Source of the DNA: an uncultured Bacilli bacterium
GTDB taxonomy: Bacteria > Bacillota_I > Bacilli_A > RF39 > UBA660
DNA length: 64,000 nucleotides
Reading direction: 5' to 3'
Assembly (NCBI GenBank): GCA_963931545.1
Contig: OZ007025.1
Span: forward strand, 887,692 to 951,691
Shown: positions 4,545-36,840 of the stretch, in pieces
How positions within the stretch are numbered: the stretch's first letter is position 1
How the letters are laid out: every line of letters begins with the position of its first letter
Notes under the pieces: model-generated
Database searches by the model: none
Told to the model about the DNA's origin: nothing
What the model saw: the letters and a program-made list of their open reading frames with translations, nothing else
Translations under genes and position numbers: made by a program

Positions 4545-5906
4545 CTACTTTATATATTTATTATTTTTTTGACAAATAATACCAATATTCCAATCATTTT
4601 CACCAAGATTATCTTTTAGATATGAAAATATATTTATTATTTTAAAATTATGTTTTTCTAATAGTTCGATTATATCTTCTATTTTGAAACAAAAAATTTG
4701 TTCTTTGATATTTATGGTTATATTTTTATTTTTATCTTGTATATGATAGGAATATTCTAAATCAAGAATGTTTTTTGAGTTTAATTTGGCATTTGATTTT
4801 CTTTTTATTGTAATTTCTTTATCGTTAACTTTTTTTTCTTGAGGTGATAGTCCTTGATGCATAATACCTTTTAAATTATAAAAATTAAAATAAAAATATC
4901 CATTTTCATTTAGTACTTGATATATATTTTTAATCATGTCTTTTACTTTTTCTTTTGTTAATTGGTAATCTATCACATGTGATAAGGCAATTACACAATC
5001 ATATTTCTTTTGTGGAATATTTTTGGTGATATCTAAACATTCATATAATATATCTTTGTTTTTACGTTTAGCATATTCTATCATATCTGGGCTTATATCT
5101 ATTCCTTCTATTTTTAAGTTATTTTCTTTTAGATATTTATCATGTTCTCCTGTACCACAGCCAACATCTAATATAGTTTTTATATTGTTTTCTTTTAAAA
5201 ATTTTAATAGTATATTTATTTCTTTTTTAAAATTGCTATTTTTTAAGAAAAATATATCATAGTAATTTACTAGTTTTCCTTGAAAAGATGATGTTTGAAT
5301 GTTATTTTCTTTATCTCTTTTCAGTTTTGAGTAAATACAGCCACAGTAATCTTGACGATATAGGCCAAATTCTTTGGATAGTTCAATACTTCTTTTATAT
5401 CCATTTTTCTTTTTAAAATCAGCATATAAGTATGTTGGTTTATACTCAAAATTTAAATTTTCTCCTATTTCATTTAACCAGTTACTATTTTTATAAGGAC
5501 TGATGGAAAGTGTTGTTGTAAAATAATCAAAATTGAGCTTTTGTGCTACTTGTGCGGTTTCTCTTAGTCTTAATTCATAACATTTGTAGCACCTTTTTCC
5601 TCTTTCTTTTTCTTCTTCTAATCCTTTTGACATGTCAAAAAATTCTTGCGGATTATATCTTCCATCTAGAACTTTGATATTGTTTTTTTGAAGTTTTTGG
5701 ACAAATGTTTTTATTTCGCTTAGTCTTTTTTGATATTCTTTTTTATCTGTTATATTAGGGTTATAATAAAAAATGGTAATATCAAAGTAGTCAGTTAGTC
5801 TTTCTAAAACAGCTGATGAACATGGTGCACAACAGGCATGCAATAGAAGTGATTTTTTTTCTGATAAGTTTTGTATTTGACGCTCCATCTCTAAATCGTA
5901 GTTCAT
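4545..5906 (-). CDS. queH: Epoxyqueuosine reductase QueH (DUF208) fused to a C-terminal class I SAM-dependent methyltransferase domain
   Basis: The N-terminal 200 aa carry the QueH Cys cluster (LLLHACCAPCS, CYKCYELR, DYCGC). The C-terminal 250 aa carry methyltransferase motif I (LDVGCGTGEH), the post-I motif (IEGIDIS) and motif II (YDCVIAL). Confidence 0.6.
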   Translation of the reverse strand: MNYDLEMERQIQNLSEKKSLLLHACCAPCSSAVLERLTDYFDITIFYYNPNITDKKEYQKRLSEIKTFVQKLQKNNIKVLDGRYNPQEFFDMSKGLEEEKERGKRCYKCYELRLRETAQVAQKLNFDYFTTTLSISPYKNSNWLNEIGENLNFEYKPTYLYADFKKKNGYKRSIELSKEFGLYRQDYCGCIYSKLKRDKENNIQTSSFQGKLVNYYDIFFLKNSNFKKEINILLKFLKENNIKTILDVGCGTGEHDKYLKENNLKIEGIDISPDMIEYAKRKNKDILYECLDITKNIPQKKYDCVIALSHVIDYQLTKEKVKDMIKNIYQVLNENGYFYFNFYNLKGIMHQGLSPQEKKVNDKEITIKRKSNAKLNSKNILDLEYSYHIQDKNKNITINIKEQIFCFKIEDIIELLEKHNFKIINIFSYLKDNLGENDWNIGIICQKNNKYIK

Positions 5907-6091
5907 TATCCCACCTCTTTCCCATTATACCATATTTTATATATATTTTACCTAGTAATGACTATAAGAGTTGGTATGAAATTTCAATATTTAATTATTT
6001 TATATTTTTTGTTAAATGAATTTTAGTAAATTATGATTTTTTCAAATAAATTTCACATAAATTGGTTATCCTATATTTGAGGGAGATGGAT

Positions 6092-20582: not shown

Positions 20583-23500
20583 TTATCCTCTATTAGTGTA
20601 TGAATAAGTTGTTCCTCTTAAAATCATTTCTAATGCATCTACTCCATATGGTTTACCATCGGTAGATAACATTTGAAATCCTAAATAGTAATTTCCTTTT
20701 AATGATGATATATTTAAATTGAAATTTCTACTTTCTCCATCGGCAATCGTACTACTACTAATTTGATTACTCTGTGCATGTACCCATGCATTTTGACCAG
20801 CACTTTGTGGTATAACAGCTAATATATTTGTTCCTGTTCCCCAAGGAGATGCATGATGCATTGGTATATATCTAACATATAATGTACTATAATCTGTTAA
20901 ATCAAATAAATTTTGTGATGTTAACTGACTTCTGACAGGACGAGTGTCTGTATGAGCCATAGTTAAATAATACTTATGTGAAGTAGCCCATACTGGATGT
21001 TTATCAATTTCTGCTTGTGAAGCATATACATTCCAAGTAGGTGCCCAAGCATTTGTATCATATCTACTTAACCAAGCCGTAGATGAATCTGTAACATCTA
21101 ATTTAAATACCGTATAATCACTTTTTCGCCAACTAGGATAAATAATTGCAGAACTATTGCAACCACCCATAGTTCCTATTTTTACTGTTGTACCACTACT
21201 TATGGTATGTGTACTATTACCACATACTACTGTTGCTCCTGCATATGAAAATCCACTAGATGGTGATGTTGTAAATGTAATGTTTTCTCCATTTATTGAT
21301 TTATTTTTTGATAATTTTATACTTCCGCCTCTTACTGTACCTACTGATATTGATGTTATTCCACTAACTGTATAACTACTACTCATTGTTCCATTTTCAT
21401 CAGTTACTTTGGCTTCTATATTTCCATTTTTATCAAAATTTACATCTACTATATTTGAGGTTACTTCTACTATTTCTCCATTATCTTTTTGATATGTACA
21501 TGTTCTTGTAGAGCCACATCCTGATGGATATACTACAGTAACTGTCTTTCCATCACTTTTTATAGTTTCTCTAAACGATATATTTCCTGGATTTTCATAG
21601 GAATATGTTTGACATAGTAATCTCGCATAATTTATATTACAAGAATTATCTTTTCCATTTGTCAATATTTCTTGGATTGCAAAATAATAGTCGCCACTTA
21701 ATTTTGTTATATCACTTGTTATACTTTTTCCATTTGTTGCATTTGTACCAGCCATACTAACCTCTACCGATGTTGATAAATTTTAAGCCAATCATTTTTA
21801 GTTTTTGTTGGTCCTATAAACATTACTCCACCATTGGTACACCAAGCCATTATTTGATATGACTTGTAATTATCTACATTTATTGTTCTTGAAGTTGATA
21901 TTTGATTTCTAGAAGCTCCTTGTGTATGTTGAATATTCGCGTAATATTTATTACCTCCTGAATCAGCACTTGTCGTATAATCCAAAAATGTTCCTTTTAA
22001 TCCATCATATTTAGTAAACTCCCATGGGATGCTTGCAGGAGTACTATTCAAATAGAAAAGATTATAATCATTACATTTCCATGATGGGTATACTATTGCT
22101 GAAGCACAATTTTTATCAGCTATTGAAAATGTTTTAGTACTTGCTCCTATTTTATATTTTGTTCCATTTTGACAAATTATTGTTGACCCTTGATATTTAA
22201 ATGTACTATCTGGAGTATCTGTAATACTTATTACTTCATCATCTATTGCTACTTCTTTTGATAGACTTATACTTCCTCCTTTTATATCTCCTGCTTGTAA
22301 TTTTGTTATTCCTGTTACATTATAAGAATTGTTTACACTATTTGTTCCATCTGTTACTGTTGCTATTACACTTCCATTCATTGTAAATGATACATTTGCT
22401 TTTGTACTATTTACTTCTACTACTGTTTCACTATCTTTTTGATAGGTACATGTTAATGTGCTTCCACATCCAGATGGATATGTTATAGTAACTGTTTTTC
22501 CTTCATTATTTGCACTTTCACTAAAGGTTGGTGCTACTAAACTAGTTGTTTTTACTTCTTTTGTTTCTGTTGTTGTTTTACCACTTTTTGATGTTACTCT
22601 AACTTCTACTGTATAACTTGTTCCTTGATTTAGATTTGTAAAATTATGAGTGGTACTAGTATTGCCATCTATCCAATTTCCACCATTTATTCTATATTCA
22701 TATTTAGTTATTCCACTATCAGCTTGGGCATTTGATACTACGGTTATACTATTGGTTGTACTTGTAGTTGATATGCTTAAACTTATATTATCTACTTTAA
22801 CTTTTGAAGTTAGTGTTGTATTACTACTAACTGTATATTTATTATTTGGATTTCCTACTTTAGAACTTCCACTATACCATCCATCTATTATATAGCCTTT
22901 ATTAGGGGTTATGGTTGGTAAGGTTATTTCACATTCTGTTTCTCTATTATATATTGTACATATATCACTATTTTTTCCTATACTTTCTATATTGCTTCCT
23001 TTGTTATAGGTTACTTTTATTTCTTTTTTATAGATAGCATACAAGGTACTTGTTCCGACCGGCATTTGATATTCTGTTAGTCCTACTAAGGCATCTTTAT
23101 CGGTATTTCAGCCTACAAATGTCCATCCATTTTTGTAGGCTTTAATATTTAAATCTACTTTACTTCCACTTGTTAGATATTCTCCTTCACTATCGGTTCT
23201 TTCTCCTCCATTTGTTTTATAATCATAGGTTAATAGATATGTACTTGGGGCTTCTGGGTCTTTATTTTCTTGAGTATATTCAAATTCTATTTCTACTTCA
23301 CTTGAAGTTGGCTCTCCATCATAGTTTGGATTATATTCTATTTTTACATGAACTAATTTACTTTTTCCATGTTCTAAGACTTCTCCTTTGGTATATCCTG
23401 AGAAGGTTATTATTACCGCTTCACTATTTGAGTTTTGGGTATTTGTTAATATATCATTTAGTTTAGCATCTAAGGTCCCTCTATTTTCTATGGTTACATC

Positions 23501-23760
23501 ATATTCCATGGCATCGCCTTTTTTATACAAATCGGCTTCCATTGAGGCTGTTAAGGTGGTCCATGATGGTTTTACTGTATTTTTGGCACTTCCTGTTGGA
23601 GTTCCATCTGTAACATTAGTTATTCTTATATCCCAGTTACTAGTTACTTTTGAAGTTCCTGATATCTTTAATTCGGTATTAAATGCGGCATAGCCTATAA
23701 CCATACATAATAGTACTCTTATTAAGCTTAATATTATTATATTTCTTTTTTTTCCCTCTA
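20583..23760 (-). pseudogene. Large surface protein gene (SipW/TasA-type signal, Fn3-like module, two tandem 250-aa modules), disrupted copy A
   Basis: By comparison with the 97%-identical copy B, this gene is split into three ORFs (23108-23704, 21764-23065, 20583-21755). The causes are a frameshift in an A8 tract at 23746-23753, a TGG-to-TGA change at 23108-23110 and a +1 frameshift near 21757. Confidence 0.55.
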
Positions 23761-23885
23761 TGCATATTATTCACCAATTATATTATACCCCCCCATGAAA
23801 ATTTCAAGTTTTTTAATACAAAAGTAAAAAAAGAAACAAGGTTTTACACTTATTTCTTTATTTGGGGGTGGTGGGGGTATTTATT
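22695..23885. repeat. 1.2 kb direct repeat (copy A) shared with 35633-36840, 12.9 kb apart
   Basis: The near-identical DNA covers the 5' part of the surface-protein gene plus 180 bp of upstream region. A second shorter shared block is 20761-20855 versus 35518-35610. Confidence 0.8.
23788..23868 (-). promoter_or_regulatory. Promoter region of surface-protein copy A with a homopolymeric tract (C7 on + strand, G7 on coding strand) abutting TATAAT, plus the G-rich motif GGGGGTGGTGGGGG
   Basis: On the coding strand the sequence reads TTGAAA-ttttcat-G7-TATAAT, about 25 nt before the ATG. A G-rich block lies at 23855-23868. Confidence 0.35.
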
Positions 23886-24009
23886 AATATTGAGGGAAAA
23901 GTATATATAATATAAATGTTTTTTATACATATTTTTGATATTACATTACCTATAAATAAAATCACATATATAACAAATTCATATTTTAGCATTTTAAATA
24001 TCTATTTAC

Positions 24010-25290
24010 TTATTCTTTAAATTCAAATTCATAATCCATTATTTTGATGGTATCTCCTTCTTTAGCCCCTAATTCTCTTAATTCATCATCAATTCCCATT
24101 TTTCTTAATTTATTTGAAAATCTTAGTATTGCTTCTTCTGTATCTAATCTACTCATAATTAATAATTTTTCTATTTCTTTACCACTTATTATCCAAGTAT
24201 CATTTTCTTTTGTTATTTTATATGGTTTTTCTTCTTTAAATTTATAAATGACATGACTTTCAAATTTTTCATCTTCGTATAAATTTTCTTTAGGGATTTC
24301 ATCCAACATATCGGCTAATTTTAGAAGAATCTTTTCAATTCCATTACCATTTATAGCAGACATTTCATATATTTCTTTATTTACTTTTTCTTTGAATTTC
24401 TTTAAGTTTTCTTTTGATAATGGCATATCCATTTTATTAGCAATTATTATTTGAGGTTTTTTTATTAAAGATTTATCAAAATTTTCTAATTCTTTATTAA
24501 TGGTTATGTAATCATTATATGGGTCATTTGTATATCCACTCATATCAATTATATGGGCAATAACCCTAGTTCTTTGAGTATGTTTTAAAAATTTATCACC
24601 TAATCCATGTCCTAAAGAAGCACCTTCGATTAATCCTGGTAGGTCTGCTACTACGAAACTTCTATTATCTGATGTTTTTACAACACCTAAATTTGGTTTT
24701 AAAGTAGTAAATGGATAATCAGCAATTTTAGGTTTAGAAGCTGATATTTTAGATATAAAGGTTGATTTTCCAACACTTGGCATACCAACTAATCCTACAT
24801 CAGCTATTAATTTTAATTCGATTTTAACTTTTCTTCTTTCTCCTGGTTCACCGTTTTCAGCATAATTGGGTGCGGGATTGGATTGAGTGGCAAAAGCGAT
24901 ATTTCCTCTACCACCTCGGCCACCTTTAGCAATTACATATTGTTCATTATTTTTTGTTAAATCAGCGATAATTAATCCTGTATCAAAATCTGTAACAACT
25001 GTTCCTGCGGGAACTGGAATTATTATATCTTCAGCATTTTTTCCATGCATTCCTTTTCCCATTCCGTTTTCGCCTTTATACCCTTTAATTATTTTTTTAT
25101 ATTTAAAATCTATCAAAGTGTTTAACCCTGTATCTACTTTAAATATAATATCTGAGCCTTTGCCACCATTACCACCAAATGGACCACCCATGGCTACATA
25201 TTTTTCTCTCCTAAAAGCTAAACAACCGTTACCACCACTACCAGCAATCAATTCAACTACGGCTTCATCTATAAACATAATATCACTCAT
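24010..25290 (-). CDS. obg: GTPase Obg/CgtA
   Basis: The Obg fold (MFIDEAVVELIAGSGGNGCLAFRREKY), G motifs (GMPSVGKST) and a C-terminal OCT domain identify it. The true start is probably the ATG at 25278. Confidence 0.9.
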   Translation of the reverse strand: MSDIMFIDEAVVELIAGSGGNGCLAFRREKYVAMGGPFGGNGGKGSDIIFKVDTGLNTLIDFKYKKIIKGYKGENGMGKGMHGKNAEDIIIPVPAGTVVTDFDTGLIIADLTKNNEQYVIAKGGRGGRGNIAFATQSNPAPNYAENGEPGERRKVKIELKLIADVGLVGMPSVGKSTFISKISASKPKIADYPFTTLKPNLGVVKTSDNRSFVVADLPGLIEGASLGHGLGDKFLKHTQRTRVIAHIIDMSGYTNDPYNDYITINKELENFDKSLIKKPQIIIANKMDMPLSKENLKKFKEKVNKEIYEMSAINGNGIEKILLKLADMLDEIPKENLYEDEKFESHVIYKFKEEKPYKITKENDTWIISGKEIEKLLIMSRLDTEEAILRFSNKLRKMGIDDELRELGAKEGDTIKIMDYEFEFKE

Positions 25291-35399: not shown

Positions 35400-36720
35400 T
35401 AAAATTAAATACCTCTATTATAATATGAATAGGTCGTGCCACCTCTAAGCGCTATTTGTGTAAAGTCGACTCCATATGGTCTTCCACTTGTTGCTAACAT
35501 CTGAACTTGTAGTAGCACTAACTTGATTGCTCTGTCCCTGTACCCATGCATTTTGACCAGCACTTTGTGGTATAACGGCTAATATATTTGTTCCTGTTCC
35601 GCCAGATATACTTGTGTGTTTCATTATCTATACTATATTCATATTTAGTTATTCCACTATCAGCTTGGGCATTTGATACTACGGTTATACTATTGGTTGT
35701 ACTTGTAGTTGATATGCTTAAACTTATATTATCTACTTTAACTTTTGAAGTTAGTGTTGTATTACTACTAACTGTATATTTATCATCTGGATTTCCTACT
35801 TTAGAACTTCCACTATACCATCCATCTATTATATAGCCTTTATTAGGGGTTATGGTTGGTAAGGTTATTTCACATTCTGTTTCTCTATTATAAATAGTAC
35901 ATGTTTCATTATTTTTTCCTATACTTTCTATATTACTTCCTTTGTTATAGGTTACTTTTATTTCTTTTTTATAGATAGCATATAAGGTACTTGTTCCGAC
36001 TGGCATTTGATATTCTGTTAGTCCTACTAAGGCATCTTTATCGGTATTCCAGCCTACAAATGTCCAGCCATTTTTGTAGGCTTTAATATTTAAATCTACT
36101 TTACTTCCACTTGTTAGATATTCTCCTTCACTATCGGTTCTTTCTCCTCCATTTGTTTTATAATCATAGGTTAATAGATATGTACTTGGGGCTTCTGGGT
36201 CTTTATTTTCTTGAGTATATTCAAATTCTATTTCTACTTCACTTGAAGTTGGCTCTCCTTCATAGTTTGGATTATATTCTATTTTTACATGAACTAATTT
36301 ACTTTTTCCATGTTCTAAGACTTCTCCTTTGGTATATCCTGAGAAGGTTATTATTACCGCTTCACTATTTGAGTTTTGGGTATTTGTTAATATATCATTT
36401 AGTTTAGCATCTAAGGTCCCTCTATTTTCTATGGTTACATCACATTCCATGGCATCGCCTTTTTCATACAAATCGGCTTCCATTGAGGCTGTTAAGGTGG
36501 TCCATGATGGTTTTACTGTATTTTTGGCACTTCCTGTTGGAGTTCCATCTGTGACATTAGTTATTCTTATATCCCAGTTACTAGTTACTTTTGAAGTTCC
36601 TGAGATTTTTAATTCGGTATTAAATGTGGCATAGCCTACCACCATACATAGTAGTATTCCTACTAAACTTAATATTATTATATTTCTTTTCTTTTTCCCT
36701 CTATGCATATTATTCACCAA
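35400..36720 (-). pseudogene. Truncated/internally deleted paralog (copy B) of the surface-protein gene
   Basis: The 5' 1.1 kb is 97% identical to copy A. After the equivalent of A position 22695 the sequence jumps to a block matching A 20855-20761 and then to a diverged 3' end. This deletes about 1.8 kb and leaves a short out-of-frame tail. Confidence 0.5.
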
Positions 36721-36840
36721 TTATATTATACTCCCCCCCCCCCACCATGAAAATTTCAAGTTTTTTTAATACAAAAGTAAAAAAAGAAACAAGGTTTTAC
36801 ACTTATTTCTTTATTTGGGGGTGGCGGGGGTATTTATTTT
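35633..36840. repeat. 1.2 kb direct repeat (copy B) of 22695-23885
   Basis: See the copy A repeat entry. Confidence 0.8.
36733..36830 (-). promoter_or_regulatory. Promoter region of copy B with homopolymeric tract C11 (G11 on coding strand) next to TATAAT, plus the G-rich motif GGGGGTGGCGGGGG
   Basis: On the coding strand the sequence reads TTGAAA-ttttcatggt-G11-ag-TATAAT. A G-rich block lies at 36817-36830. The tract length differs from copy A (11 versus 7). Confidence 0.35.

Follow-up and report, generated by a model that had tools for sequence, protein, structure and literature searches.

Candidate poly-G promoter switches in a surface-protein family of uncultured gut Bacilli

In the stretch of DNA analyzed here (64,000 nucleotides, or 64 kb, referred to throughout as the window), which has a GC content of 26-27%, two paralogous genes each carry a run of G residues upstream of the start codon, and the two runs differ in length. 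The question raised by this locus is whether the tracts set the distance between promoter hexamers, so that changes in tract length would switch or grade transcription, as the original prediction proposed, or whether their length differences have another origin and no regulatory effect.

Promoter anatomy and gene integrity of the two window copies

On the + strand the tracts appear as C7 at 23788-23794 and C11 at 36733-36743, corresponding to G7 (copy A) and G11 (copy B) on the coding (minus) strand. No other G/C run in the whole 64-kb window reaches 7 nt, and runs of 5 nt or longer total 11; if bases were independent, 0.05 runs of C7 or longer and 2e-5 runs of C11 or longer would be expected. 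The lengths, the coordinates and the great rarity of such runs are thus as originally described, except that the copy B tract does not abut TATAAT as had been claimed, AG lying between the two. The elements on either side of the tracts are the following.

23802..23807, minus strand: copy A -35-like hexamer TTGAAA, with an A6 run before it
23788..23794, minus strand: copy A poly-G tract G7, which together with TTTTCAT (23795-23801) makes up the 14-nt spacer
23777..23787, minus strand: copy A TATAATATAAT, with two perfect -10 hexamers 5 nt apart (23782-23787 and 23777-23782)
23763..23775, minus strand: copy A Shine-Dalgarno sequence GGTGA (23771-23775) and ATG (23763-23765)
36754..36759, minus strand: copy B -35-like hexamer TTGAAA
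36731..36746, minus strand: copy B G-rich tract GGT-G11-AG (G11 at 36733-36743), which together with TTTTCAT (36747-36753) makes up the 23-nt spacer
36720..36730, minus strand: copy B TATAATATAAT, with two -10 hexamers (TATAAT at 36725-36730)

Read along the coding strand, the spacer and -10 hexamer are TTTTCAT-G7-TATAAT in copy A and TTTTCAT-GGT-G11-AG-TATAAT in copy B, so that TTGAAA and TATAAT are separated by 14 nt and 23 nt, respectively, in agreement with the original description. The window genome encodes an ordinary primary sigma factor (RpoD/SigA), and promoters of the sigma-A type require 17 ± 1 nt between -35 and -10. In copy A the distance from the first TATAAT to GGTGA is 6 nt; with the Shine-Dalgarno sequence following so closely past the -10 hexamer, the mRNA would have to start at or within it, which is unusual. 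A consensus scan also returns alternative hexamer pairs, namely TTGAAA-16-TAATAT in copy A and TTTTCA-17-TATAAT in copy B, and the second, tandem TATAAT gives a 19-nt spacer in copy A; because of these alternative pairings and the tandem hexamer, the ON or OFF state of either copy is not readable from its sequence with certainty. The double -10 in TATAATATAAT could allow two ON windows of tract length, at ~G10-11 and ~G5-6, and one G6 allele (L057) has 18 nt between the -35 and the second -10 hexamer of TATAATATAAT. Directly 5' of the -35 hexamer an A run (23809-23814 in copy A, 36760-36766 in copy B), ranging from A6 to A9 among strains, occupies a position like that of an UP element.

Copies A and B belong to a duplicated cassette of ~1.2 kb whose identity is roughly 96-97%, and both genes lie on the minus strand. 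The cassette protein starts with a signal anchor of basic and hydrophobic residues (MHRGKKKRNIIILSLVGILLCMVVGYA..) and has, besides, an N-terminal beta-rich domain (beta-sandwich) of ~140 aa, which is conserved, and an InlB B-repeat (Flg_new); the C-termini of family members match fn3/Y_Y_Y and Gp10_C. From these features the products of the family are predicted to be secreted or surface proteins. A sequence-profile search of the PDB matched the InlB B-repeat and nothing for the N-terminal domain, and an AlphaFold model of the latter (pLDDT 79.5) yielded no Foldseek match at E < 0.001. A likeness of this domain to TasA/camelysin is backed by a Peptidase_M73 match in only 1 of 13 members and is not claimed. 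The C-terminal parts of the family are highly diverse (L002, 4851-6338; P0061, P0077 and others) and include Gp10_C sequences resembling phage tail fibers, fn3/Y_Y_Y and choline-binding-type repeats, such that one conserved N-terminal module is joined to many different heads; BspA-like LRR neighbors occur beside family members.

Both window genes are disrupted, in different ways. The features concerned are as follows.

20583..23704, minus strand: copy A surface-protein gene, in three ORF fragments (198, 433 and 390 aa)
23742..23753, minus strand: copy A Lys-codon A/G run (A8-G-AAA), 2 nt short of intact alleles, placing the signal peptide out of frame
35518..36718, minus strand: copy B Shine-Dalgarno sequence (36714-36718), ATG (36706-36708), in-frame Lys run (36683-36696) and ORF

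The copy A gene is a single ORF of >1040 aa in other strains; in the window it bears, beyond the 5' frameshift in the Lys-codon run, two lesions, a TGG->TGA change at 23106-23108 and a 1-nt deletion near 21784 (GGCTT[C]AAAA), and it appears to be decaying to a pseudogene in this strain. Reading TGA at 23106-23108 as Trp (genetic code 4) was considered and rejected, as another strain has TGG there and the housekeeping ORFs are normal in table 11. Copy B retains an intact signal peptide; its ORF is truncated by a deletion and fused out of frame to sequence like 20738-20845. The segment in question, which follows '...GITKYEY' and occupies 35518-35620, is 87% identical to that 3' part of the copy A gene (20738-20845); copy B is a deletion derivative, and its structure suggests recombination between paralogues. 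The Lys-codon run is a second indel hot spot: among the 22 copies compared, 2 nt are missing from window copy A and from L097 and 5 nt (one AAAAG unit) from L001, and all remaining copies have 14 nt, in frame. When the run was evaluated as an intragenic frame-shifting repeat, its frameshift alleles proved to be few among these 22 copies and not to be simple +/-1 slips.

Tract length among strains and related genomes

Corresponding loci in other strains were retrieved by way of identical neighboring sequence: RpoD, where identical, led to 10 copies of locus B, and the adjacent 155-aa ORF, again where identical, to 6 of locus A. A third locus, C, which lies downstream of a dusB-like gene, was obtained from protein homologues, and one contig of the ENA assembly ERZ21549425 (s1497.ctg001804l, hifiasm) is identical to part of the window. 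An exact look-up of the window Obg protein gave no match, and a scan of JGI metagenomes with the conserved 5'UTR anchor ATATAATTGGTGAATRATATGYATAG gave 0 matches; the clade appears to be present in ENA and NCBI assemblies only.

Comparison of these copies shows that tract length differs from strain to strain at each locus. At locus A three assemblies, representing two samples or more, have G7 (spacer 14), one has G10 (spacer 17) and three have G11 (spacer 18). Locus B has five variants, GGT-G11-AG (spacer 23), GGT-G12-AG (24), GGA-G12 (22), GGGAG5TGGG (20) and GGGGTG7 (19), so that its spacers are 19-24 in all strains and never 17-18; locus C has GGA-G8 (spacer 18) and GGA-G7-T-G4 (22). Invariance of the tract across strains is thus ruled out. 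By comparison, when 18 cassettes are aligned, the ~250 nt outside the tract, extending from the upstream C-rich box described below to well inside the gene, are nearly invariant, with two other indel spots only, the A run upstream of the -35 and the Lys-codon run. Among the other homopolymers of at least 7 nt around loci A and B, each with at least 3 comparable alleles, 1 of 35 varies (T7/T8); the constancy of the remaining 34 indicates that the G tract is specifically hypervariable. At locus A the signal peptide is in frame in 4 of 4 alleles with G10 or G11, and a 5' frameshift is present in 3 of 3 alleles with G7.

It is very improbable that these length differences are homopolymer errors of sequencing or assembly. 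Differences of 1 nt could be such errors, given that G11 and G12 separate a hifiasm contig from a megahit contig of sister samples, and short-read contigs do often break at the cassette. The G11/G12 pair is also the one hint of frequent, reversible length change inside a clonal population. However, the differences among alleles reach 4 nt and include substitutions, G7 appears both in a HiFi assembly and, for a different sample, in a SPAdes one, G11 recurs in three independent assemblies, and A/T runs of at least 7 nt in the same contigs are almost constant. The breaks themselves are accounted for by the multi-copy nature of the cassette. Two short-read contigs (L094, L095) stop just before TTGAAA, another (L084) begins inside the G run, and L099-L101 likewise end at or just before the cassette or tract. 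In L093 the locus B site is without a cassette, and the divergence (~5850-5950) falls exactly where the C-rich box starts in other strains.

The protein collection contains 133 homologues of the cassette protein, and contigs representing one genome per species contain 178; nearly all derive from uncultured gut MAGs, which are labeled Bacilli, Tenericutes or Firmicutes bacterium and carry several copies each. The carriers include Firmicutes bacterium CAG:822, and the GTDB genus CAG-822 belongs to order RF39 (PMC8035907). Judged by protein similarity, the bacterium from which the window derives is probably related to this group. Related gut MAGs, part of which belong to the RF39/CAG-822 group, contributed ~400 kb of loci; in these, all 25 G/C runs of at least 8 nt are on the same strand as the gene and are followed within 0-3 nt by a TATAAT-like hexamer, and TTGNNN precedes nearly all of them at a distance of 4-10 nt. 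In CAG:822, for example, the arrangement is TTGCAT-TTTTCAT-G9-TATAAT; in another MAG three loci have TTGATT-TTTA- followed by G6, G11 or G12 and -TGATAAAAT; and in a rabbit-gut MAG ten promoters have the form TTG(C/T)CA-AAAACCT-G9..13-TATAAT, with a different 5'UTR and with proteins merely 41-53% identical. What is conserved across lineages is the triplet of putative -35, poly-G and putative -10, and not the flanking sequence, and no other observation speaks as strongly for a spacer role of the tract in the promoter as the retention of this triplet between unconserved flanks.

The lengths of the spacers point in the same direction. Outside the window species the tract promoters have spacers of 13, 16 (three times), 17, 18 (six times), 19 (four times) and 21 nt, and over all tract promoters the values range from 13 to 24 with a mode of 18; they thus cluster near the optimum, with the two window copies (14 and 23) lying off it. 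In promoters of the family that have no tract, the spacer is 17 in 17 of 42 and 16-18 in 27 of 42, and many are of the form TTGACA-17-TATAAT.

A few related arrangements were also seen. A second promoter class in the family, TTGCAT-TACCCC(C)TATAAAT..T-TTATAAT, has a short C4-5 run within a spacer of ~17 nt and occurs in the upstream regions of L009, L028, L029, L037, L041, L054 and L061. One family member (L066, ~1425-1445) has a T18 run upstream in place of poly-G, and in L039 (93-109) a G17 run followed by TATAAT lies ~110 nt upstream of a start codon.

Proposed switch, upstream C-box and alternative explanations

The reading favored here, and considered probable, is that the tracts are simple-sequence contingency elements in sigma-A-type promoters of a surface-protein family, the copies in the window being long silent and in decay. 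The promoter would be laid out in the order A run, TTGAAA (-35), TTTTCAT, Gn, TATAAT (-10), 6 nt, Shine-Dalgarno GGTGA and ATG, and slipped-strand mispairing within the G run would alter the -35/-10 spacing. At locus A, G10-G11 would give the functional spacing of 17-18 nt (ON), and with shorter or longer tracts transcription would be weakened or abolished (OFF or graded). From the arrangement of the elements and their variation we infer the promoter assignment as well as slippage in vivo and its effect on expression. Variants in which the tract is interrupted by T or A, of which there are many, would slip more slowly.

For the window itself both copies are predicted to be OFF or weak, copy A with G7 and a spacer of 14, copy B with GGT-G11-AG and a spacer of 23. 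Given these off-optimum spacers and the inactivating lesions in both genes, the two copies are most likely switched off and decaying; with both genes broken, selection may have ceased to maintain their tracts, which may persist as relics that no longer function as switches. The promoter phase variation originally proposed is therefore upheld insofar as tract length differs among strains between constant flanks, but it has to be qualified for the copies on which it was based, where the spacers are non-optimal and the genes disrupted, and switching itself stands as a proposal drawn from sequence.

The region upstream of the promoters contains two further elements in each copy.

23864..23877, minus strand: copy A C-box, CCCCCACCACCCCC on the coding strand and GGGGGTGGTGGGGG on the + strand, at the 5' edge of the shared cassette
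36817..36830, minus strand: copy B C-box, CCCCCGCCACCCCC on the coding strand
23826..23859, minus strand: copy A AT-rich hairpin (arms 23849-23859 and 23830-23840; AAAGAAATAAG / CTTGTTTCTTT) followed by a T run, weakly terminator-like
36779..36812, minus strand: copy B AT-rich hairpin (arms 36802-36812 and 36783-36793) followed by a T run

The block GGGGGTGGYGGGGG had been described as conserved, G-quadruplex-capable and situated 60 bp further upstream. It is indeed conserved, forming the exact 5' edge of the cassette common to loci A, B and C; its position in copy B (36817-36830) had been given correctly, whereas in copy A it lies at 23864-23877 and not at 23855-23868 (a shift of 9 nt), and its distance from the tract in the window copies is 69-73 nt rather than 60. 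On the coding strand it reads C-rich (CCCCCRCCACCCCC). A canonical G-quadruplex would have four G runs of at least 3 with short loops on one strand, and GGGGGTGGYGGGGG has two runs of at least 3 plus one GG, on what is the template strand; a two-tetrad structure is at most conceivable, and the G-quadruplex claim is not sustained. In all retrieved DNA, C-rich 12-mers of this kind occur in these boxes only, if the tracts themselves, read in reverse complement, and two or three stray matches are set aside, and every C-box is followed 68-74 nt downstream by a G tract, also in CAG:822 and in another MAG where much of the intervening sequence is different; this constancy of distance may partly reflect shared ancestry, as L007 and L018 share AAATGATAACA in between. 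In the rabbit-gut MAG clade the tract and the promoter hexamers are present and the C-box is absent. The box might serve as a module for insulation or termination, be bound by a regulator near -100, or mark the edge of a recombining segment. As for the AT-rich hairpin, it beats shuffled sequences weakly (z = -2.5), and a terminator scan of both intergenic regions called none, the hairpin included.

The C-box is complementary to the tract, and folding pairs the two with energies of -27 and -36.6 kcal/mol (z about -3). It is nonetheless distinctly unlikely that tract and box act together as the arms of an inverted repeat, whether as a stem that insulates the promoter from read-through or terminates it, or as the ends of a small invertible segment carrying the -35. 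Such an explanation would fit the detection of inverted repeats here, the recurrence of the box 68-74 nt from the tract in several lineages and at the cassette edge, and the T-interrupted tract variants, which look like the reverse complement of the C-box. Any C run will pair with any G run, however, and compensatory change is absent from the 18-cassette alignment, in which an A/G difference in the C-box is unmatched in the tract; the rabbit-MAG clade keeps tract and hexamers without the box; a search of 23600-24050 gave no Rfam family match; and ~70 bp would be very short for recombinase-mediated inversion. Inversion in particular, in the manner of fimS or of Bacteroides invertons, was rejected: an imperfect repeat does exist, but 0 of ~35 assembled copies are inverted, all having the same orientation. 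An extended inverted repeat (I1) was likewise set aside, as it is absent from loci B and C and is taken to be an AT-rich chance occurrence. In a more far-reaching version of the switch, the C-box would work together with the tract, for example by folding into a structure or binding a protein, and would thereby shield the promoter from read-through or modulate slippage. Two-part switches rather than bare homopolymers would then operate at up to ~10 independently switching poly-G promoters per 1.5-Mb genome and produce a combinatorial, vlp-like surface coat; this extension is considered unlikely.

Another alternative to a promoter switch is that the G run is unstable but neutral, that it spreads within a gene-conversion cassette, and that the real promoter or transcription start lies elsewhere, tract length being without regulatory effect. 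The state of the window speaks for this, both genes being pseudogene-like, as do the spacers of locus B, which are never of the optimal 17-18 nt, and the existence of alternative hexamer pairings. Against it stands the distribution of the tracts: G runs are otherwise absent, yet 25 of 25 long ones are positioned alike with respect to -35 and -10 hexamers, between unrelated flanks, their lengths cluster at a spacing of 16-19 nt, and the intact alleles of locus A are those with 17-18 nt. A neutral tract would not be expected to keep both its position and its length window over 35-75% protein divergence, and neutrality is accordingly considered unlikely; the contingency element in a sigma-A-type promoter remains the preferred reading.

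Comparison with known switching systems

The RF39/CAG-822 group and its relatives are common in human and animal guts. If the tracts do switch, these commensals would vary a large surface-protein family stochastically, with a bearing on immune and phage evasion and on strain tracking in metagenomes; the breaking of contigs at these cassettes makes the tracts relevant to assembly as well, and tract length could serve as a marker of expression in situ, taken directly off metagenomic reads. A literature search returned no description of promoter-spacer switches in uncultured reduced-genome gut Bacilli (the RF39/CAG-822 group and relatives).

Homopolymer switches in promoter spacers are textbook examples of phase variation in Neisseria and mycoplasmas. 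In Neisseria meningitidis porA (and also opc and fetA) a poly-G or poly-C tract of ~9-11 nt separates the promoter hexamers of a surface-protein gene, and expression follows the length of this tract; the tracts of the present family have a similar placement and would act alike. In addition to the poly-G between -35 and -10, porA has an A tract in the 5' part of its reading frame that gives rise to null variants (PMC3639595). The latter has a parallel in the Lys-codon A run described above, which is frameshifted in copy A. The two systems differ in that porA belongs to a Gram-negative pathogen with one locus per gene and its switching is experimentally proven, whereas the present bacteria are uncultured, low-GC, Gram-positive-type gut commensals, in which a whole paralogous family shares one cassette, with up to ~10 tract promoters per MAG. 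The tracts of Campylobacter, Helicobacter and Bifidobacterium breve are mostly intragenic and shift the reading frame, unlike those described here, which lie in the predicted promoter. The Campylobacter and Helicobacter contingency loci and the pilus switch of B. breve resemble the present case in that hypermutable poly-G/C tracts of gut bacteria are reported to act on surface structures (PMC8355987, PMC2823697, PMC9187656).

On the sequence features assembled here, the putative poly-G spacer switch is of the kind represented by porA or by the vlp genes of Mycoplasma hyorhinis, in a lineage for which the literature search found no earlier report. In M. hyorhinis, as Citti and Wise reportedly described in 1995 (cited in PMC4198240), a poly-A tract in the promoter spacer of each vlp gene controls variable surface lipoproteins. 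Both are families of many genes for surface proteins (predicted ones here), in low-GC hosts that have reduced genomes and are akin to the Bacilli; each gene has a homopolymer of its own between -35 and -10, which would permit combinatorial ON and OFF states, and the 5' regions are highly conserved with the remainder of the protein variable. The vlp tract, however, is poly-A and its products are lipoproteins with repetitive C-termini, whereas the tract described here is poly-G in a genome of 26% GC, and its predicted products are non-lipoproteins with a signal anchor, a beta-sandwich domain and an InlB B-repeat.
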